The notes: generated from the letters alone by a model not told the origin. A stretch of 64,000 nt of DNA from Minisyncoccota bacterium (GCA_028695415.1 JAQVIY010000003.1:47132-111131); one strand, 5' to 3'. Positions 5,389 through 46,391 are shown, numbered from the stretch's first letter. Translations and numbers: made by a program.

Positions 5389-5459
5389 TGCGGGATCGTC
5401 TAATGGTAGGACGCGACCCTCTGGAGGTCGTTATCTTGGTTCGAATCCAGGTCCCGCAG
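5389..5459 (+). tRNA. tRNA-Gln (anticodon CUG)
   Basis: Cloverleaf read by hand. Acceptor TGCGGGA/TCCCGCA with the U1-A72 pair typical of bacterial tRNA-Gln. Anticodon loop CTCTGGA, T-arm CTTGG-TTCGAAT-CCAGG, no encoded CCA. Confidence 0.8.
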
Positions 5460-5704
5460 CAACATTGAATTCGAGGCATTTTTAGGGGTGTTTGCGAGTA
5501 TGTGATACGGACTTTTGTATTGTATCTTCGCCATTTCTCCGTTCTTGATAGGAGTCTGAGTTCGTCAAGAGAAAAGGTGCCCGACACTGTTTCTCCAGCT
5601 TGATTTGCCTAAATCAACTTATCAACACTTTTGTAAAAATATTGCATTTTCCAATAGTATAGTATACAATACTAACGCATTCGTAATGAGTAATAGTAAA
5701 AGAT

Positions 5705-6970
5705 ATGCATATTTCACTTGTTGAATTTTCCGTTGAAAACTACAAGGTTTTCAAAGAACGGGCTGTTTTTTCTATGCTCGCTCGGAAAAACGATAAACAT
5801 ACGTTTGAGAGTAACGGCGAAAACCTGCTTAAAACATCCCTAATTTATGGGCCAAATGCGTCTGGAAAGACGTCTCTTTTGGATGCATTCAGCCTTATAA
5901 AGGCAGGTATTATTGTATCGGCAAATCTATCCACTAACCCCAAAGATCGTTTAGGAATTCCCTATTTTCCGTTTTTAGGGTTAAAAAACACCCAAACAGA
6001 ACCATCTAGTTTTGAAGTTGTATTTTCGACAAAAGGATCTTATAGCGGAGTTTACCGCTATGGTTTCTCGATTCTGCCTGATCGAATTACTAAGGAACAA
6101 ATGAGTGTTGTGCTTGCAAATGGGAAAGAGGAGATCCTTTTCTCCCGCACAGAACAAAAGATAGCGGTCTCTGGAAATGTGTTTGCTAGTGTTAAAGATC
6201 TTACGGAAACTACACGCAAAGAAGCACTCTTCCTCTCCACGGCAGCGCAAATTAACAACAAGTTTGCCCTAGGAATTGTTGGTGCATTTCGCGATATCAA
6301 TATAATCTCTGGAGTTCGTGGTCAGTATGAAGAGTTCACGATTAGGAAATTTAAAGAAGATCCTGAATACAAGACGCGAATCCTAGAGTATCTAAAAACT
6401 GCCGATTTTTGCATCTTTGATGGTCTAACGGAAGAAATTGATGTGCCGGCACTAGATGAAATAAAAGACGATGCTGATAGTTTCTCTGCAAGAAAACGAA
6501 TGGAGAAAGGAAACGTATTAATCTTCAAGCATCCTGTATACGGCGAAGATAAGAAAAAGATTGATGACTTTAAACTTCTCTTAGAGGACGAGTCGACAGG
6601 TACTCAAAAGTTTCTTTCTGTCCTTGGTCCAATTATTGACACCCTTATTGAAGGGAAAGTTTTGTTCATTGATGAATTCGATAATAGTCTTCATCCATTT
6701 CTGACAAAACTTACTATTGATCTCTTTGAGTCTAGTGAAATTAATAAGAAAGATGCTCAACTCATTGTAACAACGCATGATGTGAGTCTCTTGTCTTACA
6801 AAGATGACTTCATAAAAGATCAATTTTGGTTTACCGAAAAAGATGAACTTGGTGCAGCCAAACTTTTCTCTCTTGCGGAATTCAAACTAAGAAATGACAC
6901 GGAATTTTCGAAAAAGTACCTAGAGGGTCGCTTTGGGGCTCTGCCGTTTGTTATTCCGTTGGAAAAATAG
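5705..6970 (+). CDS. AAA/ABC-type ATPase of the AAA_21/AAA_15 class (AbiLi/RloA-like abortive-infection ATPase)
   Basis: 421 aa. Walker A GPNASGKTS near the N-terminus. C-terminal LFIDEFDNSLHP Walker B plus TTHD motif. AT-rich gene within about 250 nt of a tRNA 3' end. The next gene is RloB-like. Confidence 0.75.
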   Translation: MHISLVEFSVENYKVFKERAVFSMLARKNDKHTFESNGENLLKTSLIYGPNASGKTSLLDAFSLIKAGIIVSANLSTNPKDRLGIPYFPFLGLKNTQTEPSSFEVVFSTKGSYSGVYRYGFSILPDRITKEQMSVVLANGKEEILFSRTEQKIAVSGNVFASVKDLTETTRKEALFLSTAAQINNKFALGIVGAFRDINIISGVRGQYEEFTIRKFKEDPEYKTRILEYLKTADFCIFDGLTEEIDVPALDEIKDDADSFSARKRMEKGNVLIFKHPVYGEDKKKIDDFKLLLEDESTGTQKFLSVLGPIIDTLIEGKVLFIDEFDNSLHPFLTKLTIDLFESSEINKKDAQLIVTTHDVSLLSYKDDFIKDQFWFTEKDELGAAKLFSLAEFKLRNDTEFSKKYLEGRFGALPFVIPLEK

Positions 6971-6975
6971 CACAC

Positions 6976-7599
6976 ATGTCTTCAAGATTCACCAGGAAAC
7001 AAGATAACCGAAAACCACGCAAAGTCATCTTTATCTATTCTGAAGGTACGAAGACAGAACCAAACTACTTCAATGCCATCAAAACAGAACTTCGTCTACA
7101 AGAAGTAGACATAAAAGTTCACGGATGTGCTGATCATACCCTGCCTCTTGTAAGGTGGGTTATAGACAGAAAAACAGAAGCAGGAAATTCAGATGAGGGA
7201 ACCGAGTGGTGGGTGGTATTTGATAAAGATGCCCACGATGGTTTTGACGACGCAATAAAGCTTGCAAGGGAGAATGGCATCGATACGGCCTATTCTAACG
7301 AATGTTTTGAATTATGGTTCATACTGCATTTTGATTTCCTAAATACTGCTATTGGTCGTGAGAACTACTATTCAAAACTTACTAAGTTACTCGGGACAAA
7401 ATACGAAAAGTGCACTTCAAATATCTATGAACTTATAAAAGATAATGAGGCCACAGCTATACGTAATGCCAAAAAATTAGAAGAACAACATGATACCAGT
7501 GGTACGAAGTCCTCTCAAAAGAGAGATCCTTCGACAACCGTGTATATGTTGGTAGAAAAACTGAGGGAACTTAAAATATCGCGAGATATTGATAATTAG
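6976..7599 (+). CDS. RloB-like protein (AbiLii / TOPRIM-related partner of the upstream ATPase)
   Basis: 207 aa. The N-terminal KVIFIYSEGTKTEPNYF motif is characteristic of RloB-family proteins. Separated from the ATPase stop by a 5-nt spacer. Confidence 0.7.
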   Translation: MSSRFTRKQDNRKPRKVIFIYSEGTKTEPNYFNAIKTELRLQEVDIKVHGCADHTLPLVRWVIDRKTEAGNSDEGTEWWVVFDKDAHDGFDDAIKLARENGIDTAYSNECFELWFILHFDFLNTAIGRENYYSKLTKLLGTKYEKCTSNIYELIKDNEATAIRNAKKLEEQHDTSGTKSSQKRDPSTTVYMLVEKLRELKISRDIDN

Positions 7600-7620
7600 T
7601 AAGTAGAGGCTTAAGGGGGT

Positions 7621-7646
7621 TCCACGTCGAACCAGACCCGCAGCCG
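7621..7646. repeat. degenerate copy of the tRNA-Gln 3' end (possible attR remnant of the islet)
   Basis: TCGAACCAGACCCGCAGCC versus tRNA 3' TCGAATCCAGGTCCCGCAGCA, about 17/21 identical with two small gaps. Confidence 0.3.
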
Positions 7647-7739
7647 ACGAACGAAGATGAGGAGGTGCTGAGGCAGTTGAGGAATGGCGATGACGAAATA
7701 CTGAACTCAGCGGAGCGAAGTGCGTTAGAATTGCACAGT

Positions 7740-7982
7740 ATGTATTTTGTATACATTCTCGAATGCAAGGATGGGTCGTTATATACGGGCATAACGACAA
7801 ATGTTGAACGACGCTTTGCAGAGCATAAAAATAGAATTGGCGGACACTATACCCGCTCAAAGCAAGCCGTGCGTGTCGTATACACCGAGCAATACCCCAA
7901 CAGGTCGTTAGCATCAAAAAGGGAAAGCGAGATAAAAAGTTGGCGGCGAGACAAAAAGATGAATCTGATAGAATCTAAATAA
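7740..7982 (+). CDS. GIY-YIG nuclease family protein (small UPF0213/YhbQ-like)
   Basis: MYFVYILECKDGSLYTGITTNVERRFAEH matches the GIY-YIG core. About 80 aa. The listed ORF start at 7665 is probably an upstream extension. Confidence 0.7.
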   Translation: MYFVYILECKDGSLYTGITTNVERRFAEHKNRIGGHYTRSKQAVRVVYTEQYPNRSLASKRESEIKSWRRDKKMNLIESK

Positions 7983-8151
7983 TGAAACTTCTGAAAGAAG
8001 TTAGACTAATCGAGGTCAAGCGGACATTCGTGATATCCGATCAGATTGCCCATGTGCACAATGGCAAAAACTCGGGAATAATCGTAAGTTTATAAAAGAT
8101 CTTTCTGAAAAAGAATTTGATAAAAAGCTGTCAGATACGAAGAAAAGAATC

Positions 8152-8610
8152 TTGAAACTCAAAGAAAAAGAGTTAGACAAATTAGTTTCTCCCGAGTGGC
8201 CGAAAAGGCTCAGAGTGTACACGGGGAGCAAGTGGTTTTTAGCGCACGTTAGTCCTAAAGAAGTCGGTGTGTGGACGAGAGCGGGAGGCTTACCATTGCG
8301 GTGGACAAATAAGAGTCTTGCTGAAACTGCAGGTAAAGTAGCACGAGGGCTTGAAAGGAATTCAACGTCGATTAAACGGAGACCGAAACATGCAATACCG
8401 AATATTTTGAAAATAAAAGATCATTTGGAACAAAAAGAAAGGTACTTGTATCCTATCGTTTTTAAGACTGATACGGGGACAATGGGCAGAAAGAGATTGA
8501 AGAGAAAAATGGCTGGAGATATCGATGACGGCAATATGAGGTCTATTGCACTGGCAATGAACGGAAGAAACCCGATTACTGTGTATTTCGGTATTCCGTT
8601 TGAATCTTAG
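8152..8610 (+). CDS. hypothetical basic protein (TTG start; possibly non-coding)
   Basis: K/R-rich 152-aa ORF in an AT-rich stretch. No recognisable motifs. Confidence 0.2.
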   Translation: MKLKEKELDKLVSPEWPKRLRVYTGSKWFLAHVSPKEVGVWTRAGGLPLRWTNKSLAETAGKVARGLERNSTSIKRRPKHAIPNILKIKDHLEQKERYLYPIVFKTDTGTMGRKRLKRKMAGDIDDGNMRSIALAMNGRNPITVYFGIPFES

Positions 8611-8647
8611 GTTCTGCGAAGGTGAATGTGGGTGGTATAGTTTCTTT

Positions 8648-9211
8648 ATGAAAACATCATTATTGGTTGTCATCGTTCTCGTCGTGCTTGGTGCGGGATA
8701 TTACCTTTCTACATCGGGCGGAGCGAAGCCTGCGGCGACAGAGTATAAGAACGCGACCTATGTCATTGAGGGCGAGCCAGTGACGCTTATAAACGGCAGG
8801 GCGGAGACGCCCGCGGCACCCGGTTCAGCATCGAAAGTGGTGACGCAATATTTCGGTAATGAATTGAAAACCGATCTCAATGGCGATGGACGGGAAGATG
8901 TCGCGTTTATCCTCACGCAGGATCGCGGTGGCTCCGGCACGTTCTACTACGCCGTCGCGGCGTTGAACACGACGAAGGGATGGATTGGTTCCGACGGATA
9001 TTTGCTTGGTGACCGCGTCGCGCCGCAGGCGACGACCATCAGCCCGAACCCTAAGCAGAAACAGGTCGTCGTGTTCAACTACGCAGATCGCGCACCCAAT
9101 GAACCGATGACCGCTCAACCTTCTGTCGGCAAGAGTGCGTACCTCAAACTCAATCCGGAGGCGATGCAGTGGGGAATCGTGATACCTAATTTTGAGGGCG
9201 AATCGCGCTAA
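8648..9211 (+). CDS. hypothetical secreted/membrane-anchored protein
   Basis: Starts MKTSLLVVIVLVVLGAGYY (signal anchor). GC-rich coding. First of three consecutive exported proteins. Confidence 0.5.
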   Translation: MKTSLLVVIVLVVLGAGYYLSTSGGAKPAATEYKNATYVIEGEPVTLINGRAETPAAPGSASKVVTQYFGNELKTDLNGDGREDVAFILTQDRGGSGTFYYAVAALNTTKGWIGSDGYLLGDRVAPQATTISPNPKQKQVVVFNYADRAPNEPMTAQPSVGKSAYLKLNPEAMQWGIVIPNFEGESR

Positions 9212-9214
9212 AAC

Positions 9215-9883
9215 ATGAAAACTTCAGCTGCGATCTGGTCGGCAATCGCCGTCGTTCTCGTTGCTGGTGGAGCGTGGTATGTGTTCAACCATCCTGTATC
9301 GGTGCAGACATCAGGCGGGCTAAACATCGCGTGGAATCAGTCAGGCACCTCTACGTCTGCACCTGCCTCTTCATCGGCGCAAGCGAGCCTCACGCGGCCA
9401 TACTCCAACACCCCGATGAAAGTCTTGCTGCAACTGCCGGATGATTACACGATTGATGAATCATATCGCTATCAAGAGCTCGGTCCCGGGAAGGATATTT
9501 TAGGTGCCAATTTCATCATTCCCGCGGCTGTAGCAGACGGCACTAATCTCGGCACTGATTCGAGCCTGAGTATCGAACAACTTCCGAAGCTCAAGGAGTG
9601 TACGGCGGCGCCCTTTTTGTGGCAGGACGGAGTAGCGGTACGCACGATTGTCGAAGGCAGCACGACCTATTCGGTCGCGGCGGCGACGGGCGCCGCCGCG
9701 GGCAGCCGGTATGAAGAGACCGTGTATGCGCTCCCCGGTACGAACCCGTGTATCGCGGTGCGCTATTTCATCCACTACGGTGTCATCGAGAATTATCCGG
9801 CAGGCGCCGTGCGTGAATTCGATCGGGCAGCGCTCCTCGCTACCTTCGACGCGATACGGCACTCACTGAAGGTGGTGCAATAA
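9215..9883 (+). CDS. hypothetical secreted/membrane-anchored protein
   Basis: N-terminal MKTSAAIWSAIAVVLVAGGAWYV hydrophobic anchor. 222 aa. Confidence 0.5.
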   Translation: MKTSAAIWSAIAVVLVAGGAWYVFNHPVSVQTSGGLNIAWNQSGTSTSAPASSSAQASLTRPYSNTPMKVLLQLPDDYTIDESYRYQELGPGKDILGANFIIPAAVADGTNLGTDSSLSIEQLPKLKECTAAPFLWQDGVAVRTIVEGSTTYSVAAATGAAAGSRYEETVYALPGTNPCIAVRYFIHYGVIENYPAGAVREFDRAALLATFDAIRHSLKVVQ

Positions 9884-9937
9884 AGTCCAGCATACTGCAG
9901 GTGTGTACAGCGTCCGCGCACCGTATGTCGGAGTGAT

Positions 9938-12900
9938 ATGGTGATGATAATGCGCGTACGACTCGCTGCGTTCTTTATTTTTATCGCTCCATTTGTGTTT
10001 GGCGCGCCGGCGTATGCGGCAATGATTGATTCACAGCCAGACGACAGCGCACAAGCCACGAGACCTCCAATCGTATATGTTTCTTATGGAGGACCATTCG
10101 TACCGGAGTATAATTATCACGCAGTGGGGTATATCCCGCACACTAATTTTAATCTCGCGGGGGTGCGCTTTCGCGTGAATGCGAGCGGTGGAGGAGATCA
10201 TCTGTGTCCTGTTGGTGATGTCTATAGGTATTCCGGGACTTCGACCCCAATATCTTGGAATTACGGCCCATCTTGGGGGTTCCTCATTGGCAGTATTGTC
10301 ATCGCCACCACCACTCCCGACATACACGGGAATTGCGACTATACGACTCGTGATAATTATGGGCGATCACTGCCGCTCCCTCTGTCCACCGGGAATTATT
10401 ACGTTTTCCTCATGTCTACGGGCGGGAATTTAGCAAACTGGGTCTCTATGAGCGGGAAGCCCCTCTCTTCTTCTACACCGCAAAATTTCTTTGGATATCG
10501 GCCCGCGACCTCCAATCCCTATGTATGGGGAACGCTCGGTCTCGAGGCTGCCTACTTTGAGTTTTTCGATACCGCTCCGCCCCTGACGTACTCCTCACCG
10601 ACTATCACGCTCTTAGGCTCTGCGACGACGACCGTCGAGTTCGGTTCGACATTCACCGACCCCGGGGCTACGGCACAGGACGCTACGGATGGAGATATCA
10701 CGAGCGCGATACAAACTACCGGTTCGGTAAACACAGGTATTATGGGTACCACCACGCTTACATACGCGGTTACCAATTCAGGGGGGCTCTCCGCGACGAC
10801 GACGCGAGCGGTCATCGTCGCCTGTACGCACGATTGCTACTCTAATGTGCTTTTCCTCCCCGGCATCGAGGGGAGCCGGCTCTATCGGCCAGATTATTCC
10901 GGCGGTACTGACAAGTTGTGGGAGCCAAACATAGACAGCGATGTAAAAGACTTGTATCTGAATCCGGATGGCACGAGTACGCGGCTTGATATCTATACGA
11001 AAGAAAGGGATGTTCTGGACGAGTTGCCGGACGGGGAGAACATCTACAAATCGTTCATCGGAGAAATGGATAGTTTGAAGACGAGTGGTGCGATCGCCGA
11101 CTGGGAACCTATTGCCTATGATTGGCGACTTTCGCTCGACGACATCCTCTCCTATGGTAATGAGGTGCAAGGCAGGATTTATTATTCGGGAGATCTCCGA
11201 GCTACATCGACACCCTACATCACGCAAGAACTCAGACATCTTGCCGCTACATCGAAGACGGGAAAGGTGAGTATCGTCGCGCATTCTAACGGGGGCCTTC
11301 TCGCGAAGCGTCTGACAGAAGTTCTCGGCCCCGCAGAGGCAGCGAGACTTATCGATAAGATTATTTTCGTCGCCGTACCGCAGGCAGGGACTCCTGCCGC
11401 GATCGCGGCAGGCCTCCATGGCTATGACCAGGAGAATGTGTTCGGGCTTATTACCTCGAAGTCAACCGCGCGTACCCTAGCGAATGCCGCGCCGATGGAA
11501 TATCAGCTCTTACCCTCGGCGAGCTACTTCACCTATGTTGATGATCCGGTAGTCACATTCGACGAGTCTCTCACGGATTGGATAGCGCAGTACGGCAGCA
11601 CTGTCCATTCACAGGATCGTTTGCATCAATTCCTTACCGACACCCTTGGAAGAGTAGATCCCGAGACAGGCGATATACAGCAGCCGATACAATTTAGCGA
11701 CACACTCCTCTCTAATGCCGAAGCGCTTCACACCAGTCTCGACGCCTGGGCACCCCCGACCGGCGTGCCGCTTATACAAATTGCCGGATGGGGAGTGCCG
11801 AAAACGGTTGAGGGGATAACGTATAAGAAAAAAGACGCAGGTGTGACGCCGGAAATGAACTTCACCACTGATGGTGACGGCACCGTCGTCACCCCAAGCG
11901 CATTATGGACAAGCACTACTGGCGCGTCGAATTATTGGGTAGACTTGAAACGATACAGTAATGATCATTGGCTAACAACTCTTGGTGGCCTCCATTCGTT
12001 CGATCATGGGAAAATACTAGAAACCGATCCTGTCTTGGATTTTCTTTCCGACCAAATCACTCATACCGCCAAGTCAATTTCTGATTACGGCTATCTCTCT
12101 ACTGAGGCCCCAGCAGACTCGAATAAGCGTCTTCGCTTCGCGCTCCACTCGCCGCTCACTCTGAATCTCTATGATTCAGAGGGTCGCCATACCGGCATCT
12201 CGACCAGCACAGGGCAGGTCGAGACCCAAATTCCCGGCACCTACTACACAGAGTTTGGCGATGTGAAATACTTGTTCTCAGACGCATCTTCAGGCGCGAG
12301 CGTCATCATGAACGGCTATGATACAGGGATGTTCACGCTTGATGTCGATGAATATAGCGGTGACACCCTCACGACGAGTACGACATTTAAAGATGTCCCG
12401 ACTACAGCAAACACGGTTGCATCTCTTAGCGTACAATCTGACAGTTCAACTCTCTCGTCGATGGTGGTAGATGAGAATGGCGACGGGAGGAATGTCTCCA
12501 CGATCGTCCCGAAAATAGGGGAGACCGTTACCTATACTGCGCCGCGTCGCGGCCACACGACGCTTGTTAGAGCGGCTAACACAGATGTCGCTTCAGAAGA
12601 AGCTCCAGTCGCCGCCGTAGCGCAGGTGGCTCCTCTTGTGCCAAGTCCCAGTACAGAATCCGCAGTGGAAAATAGAGAAGTGGCGACTACCACTCTCGTG
12701 TTCGCACCGCCTCCCCGGGAGGTAACGGCTCCTGCAGTAATCGCAGAGACTAAGAAAAAGTCTGTTGCCGCGCCTCGAACGGCGACAGCTCCCAAGCAGG
12801 AGGTACATCTTGGCGTGTCGCAAACCGCGTCGGTGTATGAAGCTTCTCAACAGTCGGTACTGAAAAAGTTGAGCGAAGCGATCTATAATAAGCTTTATGG

Positions 12901-31042: not shown

Positions 31043-31450
31043 GGGGGTGACCGGCTTTGACGGTCTGTACTTTGAAAGACGTGCGACGCAGTGCACTCTC
31101 GCCTACCACTCTAATCTAGCGAGAAAACATACTTGCAAAGAACACTCTAGCAAGCGTGAAGTCCCCGTACTTCGGTATGAAGGACTTTGCGTTCGCCTAC
31201 GCGGCAGCCTAACGGCTCCTCGCCTATGCGACGTCTGACCTTTCCGGTTCTCCAGGGGAAGTCTCGGGCGGAATCATCTGGAGCATCGATACCCGGTCTC
31301 CCGCCCGGTGCATCTAAATAAGGGATCGGGCAGGAATGGTTTTGTCGACGTTCCTCGCATCCTGCCGTAGACTCTAACGTCGACTATGCGTCGTAGACTC
31401 GCTTTCATAGCCAGGCTCGGACTCGGGTTCGATTCCCGACATCTCCACCA
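31043..31450 (+). ncRNA. ssrA: tmRNA (ssrA)
   Basis: 5' GGGGGTGACCGGCTTTGACGG resembles the tmRNA 5' end. 3' tRNA-like domain GGGTTCGATTCCC...CATCTCCACCA with encoded CCA. Acceptor pairing GGGGGTG/CATCTCC. Internal tag-like reading frame ends ...DFAFAYAAA-TAA at 31210-31212. Downstream of smpB. Confidence 0.75.
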
Positions 31451-41651: not shown

Positions 41652-41738
41652 GGAGGCGTCGGATAGTGGTTTATTCCACCACCTTGGAAAGGTGGCATGG
41701 TCGAAAGGCCATCGAGAGTTCGAATCTCTCCGCCTCCG
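41652..41738 (+). tRNA. tRNA-Ser (anticodon GGA), class II with long variable arm
   Basis: Acceptor GGAGGCG/CGCCTCC, anticodon stem-loop CCACC-TTGGAAA-GGTGG, variable arm ATGGTC-GAAA-GGCCAT, T-arm GAGAG-TTCGAAT-CTCTC, discriminator G. Confidence 0.8.
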
Positions 41739-41771
41739 CAAATGAATCCGTCGCAAGGCGGATTTTCATTT

Positions 41772-41950
41772 GCGGAGGCGAGCAATGTGCCTGCGCGCAT
41801 TGCGGGAGAGATTCGAAGACCTTGAGCCTGTCGTAGCGAGCCGGAGGCGAAGCGAGATGCGAAAGGTGTACTGAAACTGTAAGTTTCGAAAAGCGTAATC
41901 GCGGTCTCTCCGCCTGAAGTTTTTAGTATCGGACTGACCCGAGAGCATTA
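41772..41950 (+). repeat. copy A of an intergenic structured repeat with tRNA-Ser-like termini
   Basis: Shares blocks GCGGAGGCGAGCA, GGGAGATTCGAAGACCTTG, AAGGTGTAC and CTGTAAGTTTCGAAAAGCGTAATCGCGGTCTCTCCGCCT with copy B at 45997-46281. Copy-specific segments form different hairpins. Confidence 0.45.
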
Positions 41951-42059
41951 TTGTAAGCCGTTATTTGGAACGGTTCGAATCTCTTCGCGGTGCGATGGCG
42001 AAGGGATTCGAACTCCCACTCCACGAACCGCTTCGTAGGATACAATATAAAGAAGTACC

Positions 42060-43124
42060 ATGAAGAATCTTTTCATTCGTTCAAGACTCAATCCCATCAT
42101 TCGGCCGCAAGGCAGCGAATGGTGGAAAATCTACAATCCAGCGGCCGCTCTAGATGCTCAAGGTCGAGTACATCTTTTCCCTCGTGTAATGAAGCAGGAA
42201 GAGGATTGGCATTCGCGCATTGCACACGCGGTATCAAACGATGGTGAACGTTTTGAATGGGACAAAGAACCCATCTTGGTGCGACAAGAAAAAGATGAAA
42301 TGAGGGGGCTTGAAGACCCTCGCATAACACTCATTGACGGCACTTACTACATGACCTTTGCTGCTTACGATGGTAAGAAGGTCATGCTACATAGCGCAAC
42401 TGCCGAAGACCTTAATGGCCCTTGGCACCGGCGTGGCCCAATGGTGCCCGACTTCGACTTCTTCAAAAGTGGCGGCCGAATGGTGCGATGGGAGAAGGGC
42501 AAGCCAATCGAAAAGATGATCTCGAAGAGAGGTTCACATTGGTCAAAATCGGGTGCTCTCTTTCCTCAACGTATCGACGGCAAGCTCACGTTGCTCTTTG
42601 GAGAATTTTACATGTGGCTCGCTACGTCAGTGGATGGCGTGAAGTATGATGTCGAGACCGAACCGTTTCTGAAGCCGCGTAAAGGAACCTCCTATTTCGA
42701 CAACACCTTTATCGAGACAGGGCCACCACCCATTCTCACTGGAAAAGGGTGGCTGCTTCTCTATCACGGCATTGATGAAGCATTTCGGTATCAACTCGGG
42801 TTTGCGTTGCTGGATAAAGACAACCCGCGCGACATCCTCTACAGAAGCAGTGAGCCCATTTTCGGTCTGCACGAAGAGTACGAGGTCGGAGATGCCCTCA
42901 TCGACGTCATCAGTGGCGGTGTATCGGCCATGAGTAAGCTGAATGATGAAGAGTTGAAAACCTTCTACAAGAAAGCTCGAGAAGGAAATGTGATGCCGCA
43001 AGTAACTTTCTGTCCTGGCACAGTGCAAAAAGACGGGAATCTATGGCTCTATTATGGCGCGGGCGATACCTCAATTTGTACGGCTTGGGCGCCTCTGGAA
43101 GAAATTCTCAAGATTGCTTCCTAA
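42060..43124 (+). CDS. glycoside hydrolase family 130-like (beta-mannoside phosphorylase / DUF377 beta-propeller) protein
   Basis: 354 aa. N-terminal NPAAALDAQGRVHLFPRV, EDPRITLIDGTYYMTF, LLLYHGID, LWLYYGAGDT repeat blades typical of the GH130 fold. Confidence 0.65.
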   Translation: MKNLFIRSRLNPIIRPQGSEWWKIYNPAAALDAQGRVHLFPRVMKQEEDWHSRIAHAVSNDGERFEWDKEPILVRQEKDEMRGLEDPRITLIDGTYYMTFAAYDGKKVMLHSATAEDLNGPWHRRGPMVPDFDFFKSGGRMVRWEKGKPIEKMISKRGSHWSKSGALFPQRIDGKLTLLFGEFYMWLATSVDGVKYDVETEPFLKPRKGTSYFDNTFIETGPPPILTGKGWLLLYHGIDEAFRYQLGFALLDKDNPRDILYRSSEPIFGLHEEYEVGDALIDVISGGVSAMSKLNDEELKTFYKKAREGNVMPQVTFCPGTVQKDGNLWLYYGAGDTSICTAWAPLEEILKIAS

Positions 43125-43227
43125 AGATAGAACCCCGCCGAGATTCGAACTGAGCTGAGAAATAAAATCGCCATATTTTAAGCCATAGGCGAAGGTACGA
43201 CCCGAGAGCTTTCGTATCCCTTCGCCG

Positions 43228-43264
43228 CCGCCCGAAGTATTTAGTATCGGGGTGACCCGAGAGC
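43228..43264 (+). repeat. second copy of a 36-bp repeat CGCCYGAAGTWTTTAGTATCGGNNTGACCCGAGAGC (first copy 41915-41950)
   Basis: Near-identical to 41915-41950. The core TGACCCGAGAGC also occurs at 43199-43210 and 44642-44653. Confidence 0.5.
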
Positions 43265-43338
43265 CTTGTTTGGGACGCTGTCCGAAATCCGTCAAGCGGT
43301 GCCTTTTACGTTGAGCTATTTCAAGCTAAACTTTACGT

Positions 43339-43797
43339 ATGGATACTCGCATACAGGACTTGATTGATAACGCCACGAAGGAATCGAAGGGCATCTCTAT
43401 TTTAAATACTGCGGACCAGCTGGAGTCGTTCTATCTCTCAAACGTCGATAAGTATAAAGACTGGCGTGCCATCGCGAGTATCGAGGATTGGCTCCCGGTC
43501 AACCCAGAATTCCTTCAAGAATTCCGCAAGAAGTTGAGCGATAACGGAGTCGAGACTCGAGTTATCTTCAAAGAGAGCGGCCTCAAATATGAAGTTGCCG
43601 TTTTGCCACGTCGCCACGTAAAGGTCGTGCCCGATTCCTACAACTTCAAGAGCAGTATCGATATTCTCGACGACAAGATACTTATTATGAATCCCCACCA
43701 GACCGTCCTTGGTCTGGTTCTTGAGAGCAAAGTTCTTGTTGATGTATTCATCGACATGTTCGATATGCTCTGGAGCCAGCTCCCTGAAAATGCATAA
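43339..43797 (+). CDS. hypothetical protein
   Basis: 152 aa, AT-rich. Stop overlaps the start of the next gene (ATGCATAA). Confidence 0.4.
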   Translation: MDTRIQDLIDNATKESKGISILNTADQLESFYLSNVDKYKDWRAIASIEDWLPVNPEFLQEFRKKLSDNGVETRVIFKESGLKYEVAVLPRRHVKVVPDSYNFKSSIDILDDKILIMNPHQTVLGLVLESKVLVDVFIDMFDMLWSQLPENA

Positions 43798-44593
43798 CCC
43801 CATGCACGAATACGGAAAGGCAAATTGGGAGAAGCTGTGGGAACAGCTTGAGCAACAAGGAAATGTTGGGATCGATTACGTCATCAACCCATATCTATAT
43901 CCCCGCCTAGTTTCGCTTCTCGCAGATCGCCCGAAATCTCTTGCTGCTGACTTCGGATGCGGTACGAATCTTATGGGCATACAGCTCCTCTTTGGTTATG
44001 CGCCTTCCATCCCTGCCTTTGAAGGATTACAGAATGTAGATCAAGCTCGTTTCAACACGCTTCTATATGTCGGTATCGAGGGCTCACAGACTCTTGTCGA
44101 CCAAGCGAATCGCTATCTTTCCGACGTCGGGAATCCCCGCAACATCGGCACGGTACAGATGCATATAGGGAAGGACCTCGAAAAGCTTTTCGATGACAAT
44201 ACGCTCGATGTATGCACCTCTAGAAACTTTCTAATGCACCTATCGCTTGAAGATCTCAAGGTGCATATGCAATACGTGGCGGACGCACTTAAGCCTGGTG
44301 GTTCATATGTCTTTGCTACCTTGAATCCGGAATACGAACTCCTAAAAGCCGGAAGGCCTCTCGCCGAAGGCGAGCGCTACGAATTCTCGCATGGCGCTCA
44401 TGGTGAATACGGAACCTTTTACCACTACTACAAATCCCGCGAGTTTTACGAAAGCACAATCCAGAAAAGGTTCACCATCGAAGAGACCGTCTCTTGCGTA
44501 CCCAAAACGGATCGTTTTCAGAATAGCCATGAGCGCTACTACGATTCGAATATTCCCATGGCTTACGTTTACAGCCTTAAAGTCAAGAAGTAA
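43790..44593 (+). CDS. class I SAM-dependent methyltransferase
   Basis: Motif I AADFGCGTN and a post-I acidic residue. About 267 aa. Confidence 0.6.
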   Translation: MHNPMHEYGKANWEKLWEQLEQQGNVGIDYVINPYLYPRLVSLLADRPKSLAADFGCGTNLMGIQLLFGYAPSIPAFEGLQNVDQARFNTLLYVGIEGSQTLVDQANRYLSDVGNPRNIGTVQMHIGKDLEKLFDDNTLDVCTSRNFLMHLSLEDLKVHMQYVADALKPGGSYVFATLNPEYELLKAGRPLAEGERYEFSHGAHGEYGTFYHYYKSREFYESTIQKRFTIEETVSCVPKTDRFQNSHERYYDSNIPMAYVYSLKVKK

Positions 44594-44805
44594 TTCTTCT
44601 AACCAGGTCCGATTATGTATCTATCGCGTCTACCGATCCGTGACCCGAGAGCCTCGGATAGGTCGGTCAAGACGCGCTAGAATACCCTTATGAACCTTCA
44701 CCGCCGGGGTACTTAACCCGAGTAGCCCGCCAGTAGTTTTGTGGCTTAGATAAAGGTGTTTTAAAATACAGAGGCAGAGGGATTCGAACTTCGCCGTATT
44801 GCGCT

Positions 44806-45804
44806 ATGAAAATCCTAGAGAAATTTAATGAAACAAAAGGGCCGGGATATGCCGTTACGGTAGTACAAGAAGGCAAAGAAATTTCTCATCCAATCCATGG
44901 ATATGCTGATCTTGAGAATTCAGTTTTAATTTCTGAAGCTACCAACTTTCGTCTTGCTTCAGTCTCGAAGCAATTTATTGCGGTCGCTGTCCTCGTTTTG
45001 GTTCAGAACAAGAAGCTAGCTCTTGAGGATGGCTTGCGCACCTTCTTTCGAGATTTTCCTGACTATGGTAAAGATATAACCCTTTACCAGCTACTCACCC
45101 ACACTTCTGGATTACGAGATTACGAGTCTTTATCATCTGGAAACACTTCTTCCCAAGTCCATGACGAGGATGTGTTTGTTTTATTGAAAAATGAGAAGGG
45201 TGGATTATTTGAGCCGGGTGCAAAGTACAGCTATAGCAACGGGGGATATTGCCTTCTGCGTCTGATTATAGAAAAAGTCTCAGGCCAAGATATCGGAAGC
45301 TTCATGCGCGAGCGTATATTCCAACCTCTTGGAATGAATTCTACCGCGGTGAACTTTGAGGGTGAAAGTATTATTCCAGATCGAGCGTATGGGTATTCTC
45401 TACAGGAGAATGATCAATGGATTCGAACCGATCAAGACAAAACGAGCGCAACTATTGGGGATGGCGGTATTTATTCTTCCATTGTCGATATGCGGAAATG
45501 GGATCAGGTTTTATACACTGACATCATAATGGTACATAAGCACGTTCTCACTGATGAGGGAGAGGGAGTATATTATGGTTTCGGTCTTTGTCTAAAAGAG
45601 CATAACAACAGAAGGGTCGCATACCACGGCGGAAGCTCGATCGGATTTCAAACAGGAGTTTACTACCTATTGGATGAAAGGATGAGTGTCGTATTTCTTT
45701 CGAACAGGACTGGCGAAGAAGGGTCATCAATAGTTGAACAGCTTGCCGATGATTTTCTAGCGACTAATGTGTATAGAGATATACACGAAAGTAAACGATT
45801 ATAA
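44806..45804 (+). CDS. serine hydrolase of the beta-lactamase/penicillin-binding-protein fold
   Basis: SxxK active-site motif ASVSKQF. HTSGL motif. 332 aa. Confidence 0.75.
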   Translation: MKILEKFNETKGPGYAVTVVQEGKEISHPIHGYADLENSVLISEATNFRLASVSKQFIAVAVLVLVQNKKLALEDGLRTFFRDFPDYGKDITLYQLLTHTSGLRDYESLSSGNTSSQVHDEDVFVLLKNEKGGLFEPGAKYSYSNGGYCLLRLIIEKVSGQDIGSFMRERIFQPLGMNSTAVNFEGESIIPDRAYGYSLQENDQWIRTDQDKTSATIGDGGIYSSIVDMRKWDQVLYTDIIMVHKHVLTDEGEGVYYGFGLCLKEHNNRRVAYHGGSSIGFQTGVYYLLDERMSVVFLSNRTGEEGSSIVEQLADDFLATNVYRDIHESKRL

Positions 45805-45963
45805 ACGCAAATTCTCAGTAGACCCTTTGAGCAAAAGCTGGAATCTCGAATAAATCAGGCTTTTCTTGGTGAATTTGTATTAGTTTTCGTATAATCCTAT
45901 CAACATTGCTGTAGTTAAGCCGTTTCTTAGGTTCAAAGTTGTGCCAATCATCACCGCCGATAC

Positions 45964-45994
45964 AAAAAAGAGCGCCGTTGAGGCGCTTTTTTTG
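45964..45994 (+). terminator. rho-independent terminator
   Basis: AGCGCC-GTTGA-GGCGCT followed by TTTTTTT. Confidence 0.6.
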
Positions 45995-45996
45995 TC

Positions 45997-46281
45997 GGCG
46001 GAGGCGAGCACGCCTGGGAGGCGTGCGTGGGGGATTCGAAGACCTTGCGGATAATTCGCTTCTTTCTAGAAGCGAATTATCCGCAAGGTGTACGCCGAGA
46101 TTTTAAAGGAGCGGAGCGACTATAAAAATCCAAGTGCAGTTTCGAAGAAAGCTGCCTGAAGCTGTATGAGTACATACAGCTTCTTCGTTCGGCGCAAAAG
46201 AATGATCACCCCATCATTCTTTTGACCTCACTCATCGCTGTAAGTTTCGAAAAGCGTAATCGCGGTCTCTTCGCCTCCGCC
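45997..46281 (+). repeat. copy B of the structured repeat (carries an insertion of about 150 nt relative to copy A)
   Basis: Termini GGCGGAGGCGAG ... CTCTTCGCCTCCGCC are mutually complementary and resemble the tRNA-Ser acceptor/3' end. Internal blocks shared with copy A. Confidence 0.45.
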
Positions 46282-46391
46282 GGAGGTATTGACAGAGAGT
46301 TTTTATATATGTTAGTATAAGACGAGATTTATTTTTGGGCTATCGTGGCTCAACAACGGCACATTCCAAACTCAAAAACAGGAGACTAGAC

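Follow-up and report, generated by a model that had tools for sequence, protein, structure and literature searches.

Which kind of element is the structured repeat that lies twice, 4.2 kb apart, behind a single serine tRNA gene in a Minisyncoccota bacterium (GCA_028695415.1), and is it DNA or RNA that its fold serves? The 64,000-nucleotide stretch analysed here (JAQVIY010000003.1:47132-111131, hereafter the window, from whose first letter positions are counted unless another locus is named) comes from the Patescibacteria (candidate phyla radiation, CPR), which have tiny genomes with, to our knowledge, few recognizable mobile elements and little known regulatory RNA. The reading that we favor, at about even confidence, is a non-autonomous element that uses tRNA 3′ ends as integration sites and whose module folds on the sense strand as a mimic of the top half of a tRNA. 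This integration model is based on a repeat placed at tRNA landmarks, an inverted arm, a covarying core, presence or absence among relatives and the accretion of cassettes lacking a recombinase.

The two copies, A and B, share the 33-mer CTGTAAGTTTCGAAAAGCGTAATCGCGGTCTCT, which occurs exactly twice in the window (at 41877 and 46238, with none expected from shuffles), and the word GATTCGAAGACCTTG, which occurs twice against 0.17 expected. GATTCGAAGACCTTG, AAGGTGTAC and GCGGAGGCGAGCA follow one another in the same order in both, and all of the shared blocks listed by the initial annotation are present. A covariance-model search of the window returned A and B, both at one tRNA, and no third copy. 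Copy B (45997-46281) folds with −145.5 kcal/mol (z = −11 against shuffled sequences); the fold of copy A taken alone is unremarkable (z = −1.8). The tRNA gene and the two units, with their helices P1 to P6, are laid out as follows.

41652-41739, plus strand: tRNA-Ser(GGA) (ARAGORN; Rfam tRNA model, 53 bits).
41725-41739: X1, the last 15 nt of tRNA-Ser (positions T60-C74), recurring at the 3′ end of the units.
41731-41780, plus strand: hairpin H0 (inverted-repeat and palindrome measurements).
41772-41915, plus strand: unit A (sequence; covariance-model match 41768-41924, 132 bits).
Parts of unit A: inverted acceptor strand 41772-41780; P2 41782-41803; P4 5′ strand 41806-41811; TTCGAAGA 41812-41819; P3 41819-41867; P5 41873-41887; P6 41893-41902; P4 3′ strand 41905-41910.
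45997-46281, plus strand: unit B (sequence, repeats and folding).
Parts of unit B: P1 5′ strand 45997-46007; P2 46008-46026; P4 5′ strand 46029-46034; TTCGAAGA 46035-46042; P3 46042-46089 (22 bp, perfect); extra domain 46094-46237 (144 nt, including module M1 and hairpins common to L007 and L018); conserved block 46238-46265; P4 3′ strand 46266-46271; P1 3′ strand 46271-46281.

Copy A lies directly behind tRNA-Ser(GGA), as first described. In H0, the acceptor 3′ strand and its A-rich trailer pair with a U-rich leader and the 5′ arm of unit A through perfect 16-nt arms (41731-41746 and 41765-41780), which enclose a terminator-like hairpin. The extent first given for copy A, 41772-41950, holds at its start; the unit itself stops at 41915, keeping just 5 nt of the acceptor 3′ strand (41911-41915), and bases 41916-41952 belong to another repeat, M2. 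The hairpin of copy A that had been called perfect (GCAATGTGC/GCGCATTGC) contains one G-U pair. The hairpin that follows the second block in copy B is perfect as claimed, with 22 bp (46042-46063/46068-46089) in place of 15, and the termini of B do pair, over 11 bp (GGCGGAGGCGA/TCGCCTCCGCC) and not about 12. P4 of unit B includes three G-U pairs. P2 and P3 of unit A are of a type also present in L020, whereas unit B has exactly the P2 of the L022 unit, which is linked to tRNA-Tyr. A and B thus appear to be two lineages of one module that insertion brought together, neither a recent duplication nor a covarying pair, and the hairpin difference that had been taken for slow covariation between them would reflect this separate descent. 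ARAGORN also called a 92-nt 'tRNA-Pro(ggg)' at 45984-46075, a false call that runs from the terminator into the beginning of copy B and to which the Rfam tRNA model gives no match.

The search for further copies that the initial annotation had proposed uncovered a family beyond A and B (loci are denoted by L and a number). The 185,579 GTDB species genomes were scanned with one 21-mer from the shared block, which gave six genuine loci in metagenome-assembled genomes (MAGs) labeled Paceibacterota and Saccharibacteria, the labels being those of the deposited records. Metagenomes scanned with one 19-mer gave 19 further loci, several of them duplicate contigs of one place. Of the word matches, L006 (a Cytophagales contig without the other blocks of the unit), L011/L014/L015 and L023/L029 were attributed to chance and discarded. 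The set comprises 22 distinct full-length units, B and two units cut by contig ends; the 22 full-length covariance-model matches score 101-147 bits.

One architecture, ∼145-290 nt in length, is found in all units: an inverted copy of tRNA positions 54-74 that is split by P2, a core, the closing helix P4 and a direct copy of tRNA positions 60-74. The core consists of hairpins P3, P5 and P6 and a near-invariant block of ∼45 nt. From 5′ to 3′, the 5′ arm is followed by P2 (loop mostly UGGGA or CUGC), a 6-nt strand, UUCGAA(G/A)A and a variable P3 with a recurring internal motif GAGC...GCGAA, and then by UGUACU, P5 (GAAAC-UGUAA-GUUUC), GAAAA, P6 (GCG-UAMU-CGC), GG, the P4 3′ strand and the 3′ arm. 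B, L007 and L018 carry an extra domain of 65-144 nt between UGUAC and the P5 loop. The ∼45-nt block is invariant across Paceibacterota- and Saccharibacteria-labeled MAGs and many metagenomes, an invariance that seeding with exact 19-21-mers overstates, more divergent members being missed. P5 (UGAAA-CUGUAAG-UUUCG, window 41872-41888) resembles an anticodon arm in its geometry (U33, GUA and A37), which may be coincidence; the compensated P5 variant of L031 has the loop AUAUAGU.

The proposal that the family is undescribed is borne out by Rfam 15, whose models cover tRNA, tmRNA, YrlA, ROOL, GOLLD and riboswitches among others: at the gathering score a search of the window, including both copies, gave no match on A or B, at E values up to 10 only spurious microRNA and small-RNA matches far below threshold appeared, and the clean L005 unit gave nothing. 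Pattern scans of IMG/VR gave no match, BLAST searches of the INPHARED phages and PLSDB plasmids with copy B as the query yielded one 28-nt chance match only, and full-text literature searches found no description of the unit.

The pattern of conserved blocks and compensatory helices first seen in A and B holds over about two dozen copies. Across the aligned copies, 88.9% of the cells of all 43 pairs are paired (70% in shuffles) and 36 of the 43 change on both sides. The helices that do not depend on the tRNA (P2, P3, P5 and P6) are paired in 93.7% of cells (73.7% in shuffles), with 21 of 25 pairs changing on both sides. None of 500 shuffles reached the observed covariation scores and slid registers did not come close either. 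The minus-strand copy in L031 has P5 as GCCGA-UAUAG-UCGGC, a complete compensation. P2 and P3 together contain 386 Watson-Crick pairs, eight G-U and one A-C; the curated count over P2, P3 and P4 is 15 G-U against 4 A-C, including the three G-U pairs in P4 of B, and this excess, clear in the curated count only, would place the fold on the tRNA-sense strand. The core is 100% conserved between the window and L020 and L003, where the flanking M48 gene has ∼75% nucleotide identity. Since the acceptor 3′ strand has been lost in a whole vertical lineage with the core invariant, selection appears to keep the core and not the acceptor mimic. Decaying attachment-site scars and terminators with chance hairpins would suit the several decayed tRNA-end fragments that do occur in the region, but they are refuted by the block kept across two MAG labels and many metagenomes and by covariation above every shuffle; we give this explanation next to no probability.

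Every unit lies directly downstream of a tRNA gene or of a decayed tRNA 3′ fragment (the latter for B, L020 copy b, L025 and L001), in the same orientation. The adjoining tRNAs are Ser (GGA, GCU, UGA and ACU), Tyr(GUA) and Asn(GUU), and every tRNA upstream of a unit was predicted as intact. At its 3′ end the unit carries a direct repeat, 15-16 nt long, of positions T60-C74 of the neighbor, with C74 reached where intact; the left boundary of the repeat is T60 in all 16 loci examined, for Ser, Tyr and Asn alike. The tRNA origin of the ends and their attachment-site-like relation to the tRNA, both suggested earlier, are upheld by this repeat. The 5′ arm is an inverted, complementary copy of tRNA positions 54-74, interrupted by P2 precisely where acceptor stem and T stem meet. 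Its complementarity reaches beyond the tRNA in 14 of 16 loci (all except L009 and L022), by 3-17 bp of genomic trailer (mean 7), and in doing so spans an A/U-rich hairpin, in many cases similar to a bidirectional terminator; the extension between the 5′ arm and the distal tRNA-end copy is just 0-5 bp. Six of the 16 loci (window A, L003, L012, L019, L020a and L028) have a distal copy whose acceptor part is decayed. The six nucleotides of P4 are kept in five of these six, and in L019 four of the six pairs are still Watson-Crick.

In L009 the arms of the unit match each other but, at two positions, not the tRNA-Ser(ACU) beside them; their counterpart is a tRNA-Ser of the GGA type found in L012, which would fit insertion at a non-cognate tRNA-Ser. 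Three Patescibacteria contigs carry such a tRNA-Ser with the unusual A34 anticodon ACU beside tRNA-Ser(GCU), and in L009 and L031 the tRNA-Ser(ACU) is itself followed by a unit.

L004 1751-1836, L009 783-870 and L031 1313-1398, minus strand: tRNA-Ser(ACU) (ARAGORN).

NCCA is encoded after the discriminator in seven units and is missing from most tRNA genes there. A tRNA-primed or tRNA-derived retroelement resembling a short interspersed element (SINE) and moving through an RNA intermediate, one of the identities considered in the initial annotation, would account for this CCA and for a 5′ arm that complements the tRNA 3′ end in the manner of a primer-binding site. It is largely refuted and in our judgment very improbable: the copying is confined to the 3′ end of the tRNA, present in one inverted and one direct version, and the copy follows the gene, the 5′ arm complementing the genomic trailer (CAA, CAG or CTT) and not the CCA of a mature tRNA. 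Moreover, units always stand beside the matching tRNA gene in the same orientation, native tRNA-Ser genes of relatives sometimes encode CCA, and no reverse transcriptase gene was found next to any unit.

The tRNA-Ser locus is an insertion hot spot. By its flanking M48 protease the source organism is Kaiserbacteria-like, within the Paceibacterota, and a protein identical to this M48 is encoded in a MAG deposited at NCBI. The order M48, tRNA-Ser(GGA), unit is common to four genomes (the window, L020, L003 and L008). Eight relatives were chosen through the flanking M48 gene alone, irrespective of the unit, and none has a full unit at this locus. Two are empty sites (L039 and L037), in which tRNA-Ser is followed directly by (NUDIX-)DUF192-RNR, and four (L032, L033, L034 and L038) hold unrelated islands at the same spot, one with a restriction-modification system, one with tail-fiber-like proteins and one with HTH genes. 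L036 has no tRNA at this position. In L035 the unit is absent and a large serine recombinase gene abuts tRNA-Ser; this gene (8539-10123, minus strand), which has 15 nt in common with the 3′ end of tRNA-Ser(GGA), is a candidate for the kind of enzyme that acts at the hot spot. L032 retains the last ∼30 nt of a unit (GAAAAGCGTACTCGCGG and TCTCTCCGTCT) at the right end of its island. In L020 two near-identical units flank a different low-GC island of 2.4 kb (an HTH gene and a 487-aa open reading frame, ORF), in which no recombinase gene was found. What follows the unit in L018 is similar in sequence to what follows the tRNA in L034, which suggests that the tRNA-end copy of the unit is used like the tRNA end itself. 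All-against-all BLAST of ORFs, Pfam and PADLOC revealed no protein family recurring beside units, only host synteny, and no recombinase gene was found next to any unit. In L034, M48 and tRNA-Ser are separated by a LAGLIDADG-like ORF (7942-8631).

In the window, A and B enclose ∼4.1 kb of low-GC cargo (GC 0.42-0.50, against ∼0.52-0.61 in the adjoining core regions), arranged as follows.

41910-41952, plus strand: module M2 (CCGCCYGAAGNNTTTAGTATCGG..GACCCGAGAGC), 43 nt, fused to the truncated end of unit A.
41973-42013: relic tRNA-end palindrome GTTCGAATCTCTTCGC/GCGAAGGGATTCGAAC with no unit attached (inverted and direct repeats).
42060-45804, plus strand: cargo, four genes.
42060-43124, plus strand: GH130.
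43136-43155, 43192-43237 and 44771-44792: intergenic tRNA-end relics.
43339-43797, plus strand: 152-aa ORF.
43709-44593, plus strand: methyltransferase.
44806-45804, plus strand: beta-lactamase-fold protein.
45813-45960, minus strand: small conserved ORF of ∼50 aa, homologous to L032 6021-6173 (minus strand).
45930-45960, plus strand: decayed, displaced tRNA 3′ fragment GGTTCAAAG...CACCGCCGA.
45964-45996, plus strand: bidirectional terminator hairpin, after the tRNA fragment and before unit B.
46289-46318, plus strand: sigma-70-like promoter TTGACA-18-TAGTAT, immediately after unit B, for the core-side gene.

The order is thus tRNA-Ser, H0, unit A, M2, GH130, relics with a second M2, the 152-aa ORF, the methyltransferase gene, an intergenic module of ∼150 nt, a relic, the beta-lactamase-fold gene, the small ORF, the tRNA fragment, the terminator and unit B, with the promoter and the core genes DUF192 and RNR downstream. 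The second M2 (43228-43270) has 86% identity to the first, and M2 also occurs in L025. Eight of the ten GATTCGAA motifs of the window fall between the units. The small minus-strand ORF, which belongs to no Pfam family, stands at the right end of islands directly before the resident unit (a unit stump in L032). The arrangement of tRNA fragment and terminator is also found ahead of L020 copy b and the L025 unit, and comparable outward-facing promoters stand behind the units of L002, L009 and L024. No recombinase or reverse transcriptase gene was found in the window island, and the islands of relatives contain no homologues of its cargo. The simplest account is one of repeated insertion at the tRNA end, each event pushing older material to the right, with B in the oldest layer.

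Several short modules of these intergenic regions were observed besides. GACCCGAGAGC occurs four times (41937, 43200, 43255 and 44643), in intergenic regions of the island only and usually in a hairpin loop. Module M1 (GATTTTWAAGGAGC.CAGCGACTATAAAAATCCAAGTGCA) lies in the extra domain of copy B (46098-46138) and, outside the unit, at 293-338 in L025, which suggests that B is a mosaic and that short modules move independently. The ∼150-nt module is common to the window (44584-44731), L025 (880-1016) and L038 (16204-16347); in L038 it stands just ahead of DUF192, and it may be a promoter, a leader or a small RNA.

In the integration model, A and B would be conserved non-coding end-modules of small DNA elements that integrate at the 3′ ends of Patescibacteria tRNA genes. 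Through a recombinase supplied in trans, a circular element would exchange its tRNA-end copy with the tRNA gene or, alternatively, with the tRNA-end copy of a module already resident. The DNA between two tRNA-end copies would then behave as a cassette, and cassettes would accumulate behind the tRNA. A would be the newest of these, a cargo-free cassette of ∼180 bp, and B an older resident next to the core genes; between them would lie cargo cassettes separated by tRNA-end relics and then an old displaced tRNA fragment. On the tRNA-sense strand the inverted arm would pair with the tRNA-end copy and close the core into an acceptor/T-stem mimic. The folded single strand would be under selection, most likely as read-through or co-transcribed RNA and possibly as folded DNA, and the fold would serve the element in recognition or processing and not as a housekeeping RNA of the host.

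Several observations weigh against this model. No recombinase linked to any unit was found and neither an excised circle nor its junction was seen, so we infer the recombination step; a double-stranded circle of 165-180 bp is, moreover, a poor recombination substrate. Absence in relatives was read at this one locus and would not prove absence from their genomes. The wobble count is weak in the model-fitted alignment (33 G-U against 24 A-C). With the resident core conserved and the distal acceptor copy decayed in six of 16 loci, something seems to be selected in the resident state, for which a pure attachment site offers no obvious explanation, and P2 and P3, free in sequence with pairing kept, would be easier to reconcile with RNA than with duplex DNA bound by protein. 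A and B both lie behind strong terminator hairpins and a promoter search revealed no evident promoter for the units, which argues against an abundant RNA, at least for B.

An RNA as such is favored by the G-U pairs, the placement of P2, the T-loop-like UUCGA, the purine-rich loops and the optional domains; an abundant RNA is disfavored by the upstream terminators, the loss of the acceptor 3′ strand and the lack of an evident promoter. The unit could on these grounds be a stand-alone tRNA-like non-coding RNA gene of the island or the host, acting in trans, a reading that we regard as possible but doubtful. It would be transcribed jointly with the tRNA and released by RNase P and RNase Z by virtue of the acceptor/T-stem mimic of P1 and P4, with P2 replacing the D arm and the core sitting in the T loop, and the link to islands would be incidental to the hot spot. 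Strong covariation with apparently strand-specific wobble, down to the three G-U pairs in P4 of B, agrees with such a gene, as do the tRNA-like topology (a continuous 3′ strand, P2 at the acceptor/T-stem junction and UUCGA after P4), the NCCA that most tRNA genes there lack, the retention of the core during vertical descent, and extra domains that are optional in B, L007 and L018, as in large structured RNAs. The spacer hairpin is not followed by a U tract in L002, L008 and L010, which makes read-through from the tRNA promoter plausible. However, six of 16 units have lost the acceptor 3′ strand with the core intact, the unit is rare (six genuine exact-word matches in the 185,579 species genomes) and missing from eight of eight relatives at the same locus, B has neither an upstream tRNA nor a promoter and lies behind a strong terminator, and no Rfam tRNA-like family matches. 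Such a gene would also leave the copying of the neighboring tRNA and its trailer unexplained.

If the fold is instead DNA, the unit might be a single-stranded attachment site such as integron attC or attP(+) of CTX phage, in which the arms rebuild the duplex of the tRNA 3′ end on the tRNA-sense strand, P2 is an extrahelical marker and a host tyrosine recombinase inserts integrase-less cassettes behind tRNA genes. Exact reproduction of the target duplex by P1/P4, the cassette-like arrays that lack a recombinase and have tRNA-end relics between genes, helices that are nearly all Watson-Crick in P2 and P3, and three TTCGAA motifs per long unit that could bind protein all point this way. Integron attC sites and CTX-phage attP are likewise imperfect palindromes, structured and single-strand-specific; they measure ∼60-140 nt, lie at the ends of cassettes and have stems free in sequence, and their arrays can occur without an integrase (CALIN arrays). 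The hallmarks of attC are the core sites R′′(RYYYAAC)...R′(GTTRRRY) and a platform of intI and attI. The units begin GC-GGAGGCG... and end ...CGCCTCC-GC(A/C), with no GTTRRRY at the boundary; inspection by eye, not a formal scan, found no R′′, L′′, L′ or R′ boxes in the units and no intI-like gene in them or in their annotated neighbors. The unit differs further from these sites in its anchoring to tRNAs and its long invariant block. Three G-T mismatches in the 6-bp P4 of B would be unstable in DNA, the purine-rich, asymmetric loops of P3 are more RNA-like, and no recombination evidence was obtained. We consider this attachment-site explanation rather improbable. A bolder version of the integration model, which we hold unlikely though worth stating, is a new recombination device in which the single-strand fold, of RNA or DNA, rebuilds through P1/P4 the 3′-end duplex of the chosen tRNA gene beside the conserved core and so guides a recombinase acting in trans to insert integrase-less cassettes behind that tRNA.

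Other candidate identities were rejected. A tmRNA-like RNA was suggested by GGAUUCGA near the 5′ end; the 5′ end of the tmRNA in the window differs, and the unit has no closed T arm. That gene (31043-31450, 90 bits) is a standard tmRNA with a long tag peptide, AKNTLASVKSPYFGMKDFAFAYAAA, and is unrelated to the units. Long-range pairing of UUCGAA with UUCGAA fails because the L031 minus-strand copy and L017 alter one partner without compensation. A small peptide in the conserved block is precluded by stops in two frames and by P3 length changes that break the third, and the conservation is at the nucleotide level. The genes downstream of units are unrelated, contrary to a riboswitch or leader. 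The window also contains a second low-GC island (5389-9200, GC 0.39-0.46) directly after tRNA-Gln, with a defense-type set of genes (an AAA_21 ATPase, an RloB-like protein and a GIY-YIG nuclease), in which no integrase, no unit and no tRNA-Gln end repeat was found.

Among known systems the closest kind are tRNA-targeting integrative islands and their integrase-less derivatives, among them Islander tyrosine-integrase islands, tandem accretions, CIME-type elements and the tycheposons of Prochlorococcus. Shared with these are insertion at a tRNA that is kept intact, a direct repeat of the tRNA 3′ end on the far side, variable low-GC cargo, presence or absence among relatives, decaying displaced fragments and arrays at one tRNA. 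In contrast to these islands, the unit has no integrase in cis and a cargo-free form of just ∼180 bp, and combines an inverted tRNA-end copy with a covarying three-hairpin core that stands behind three tRNA identities. Miniature inverted-repeat transposable elements (MITEs) and REPINs are similarly small, non-coding and strongly folding and, as the unit would, depend on an enzyme in trans. Their inverted ends and target duplication may have counterparts in the inverted arms and 15-nt flanking repeat of the unit, which however both copy the target tRNA and are not element-specific ends. The unit differs from both further in having one or two copies per locus, not dozens, and a strict link to tRNAs. 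Like tRNA-like RNAs (the tmRNA domain, YrlA, viral 3′ structures and mascRNA), it has a coaxial acceptor/T-stem mimic with the discriminator retained, NCCA in some copies and a hairpin replacing the D and anticodon arms. Unlike them, it has no closed T arm, an 85-230-nt domain at the T-loop position, no Rfam match, an acceptor sequence that follows the neighboring gene and an acceptor half that is dispensable in six of 16 copies.

What the family offers is a sharply conserved, folded and uncatalogued element at a site where accessory genes are gained without a recombinase, the genes gained at such sites including restriction-modification systems, glycosidases, methyltransferases and other accessory genes. 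Its covariance model is a sequence marker for integration hot spots and cassette boundaries in CPR MAGs, and the arms, which track the neighboring tRNA, make it a testable case of tRNA mimicry. Should the fold be an RNA, the units would constitute a new tRNA-like class; should it be the substrate or guide of integration, they would represent a new route of gene capture. The recombination device outlined above, if true, would amount to an integron-like cassette system without an integrase on the tRNA genes of Patescibacteria, retargetable to Ser, Tyr or Asn tRNAs through its two arms.

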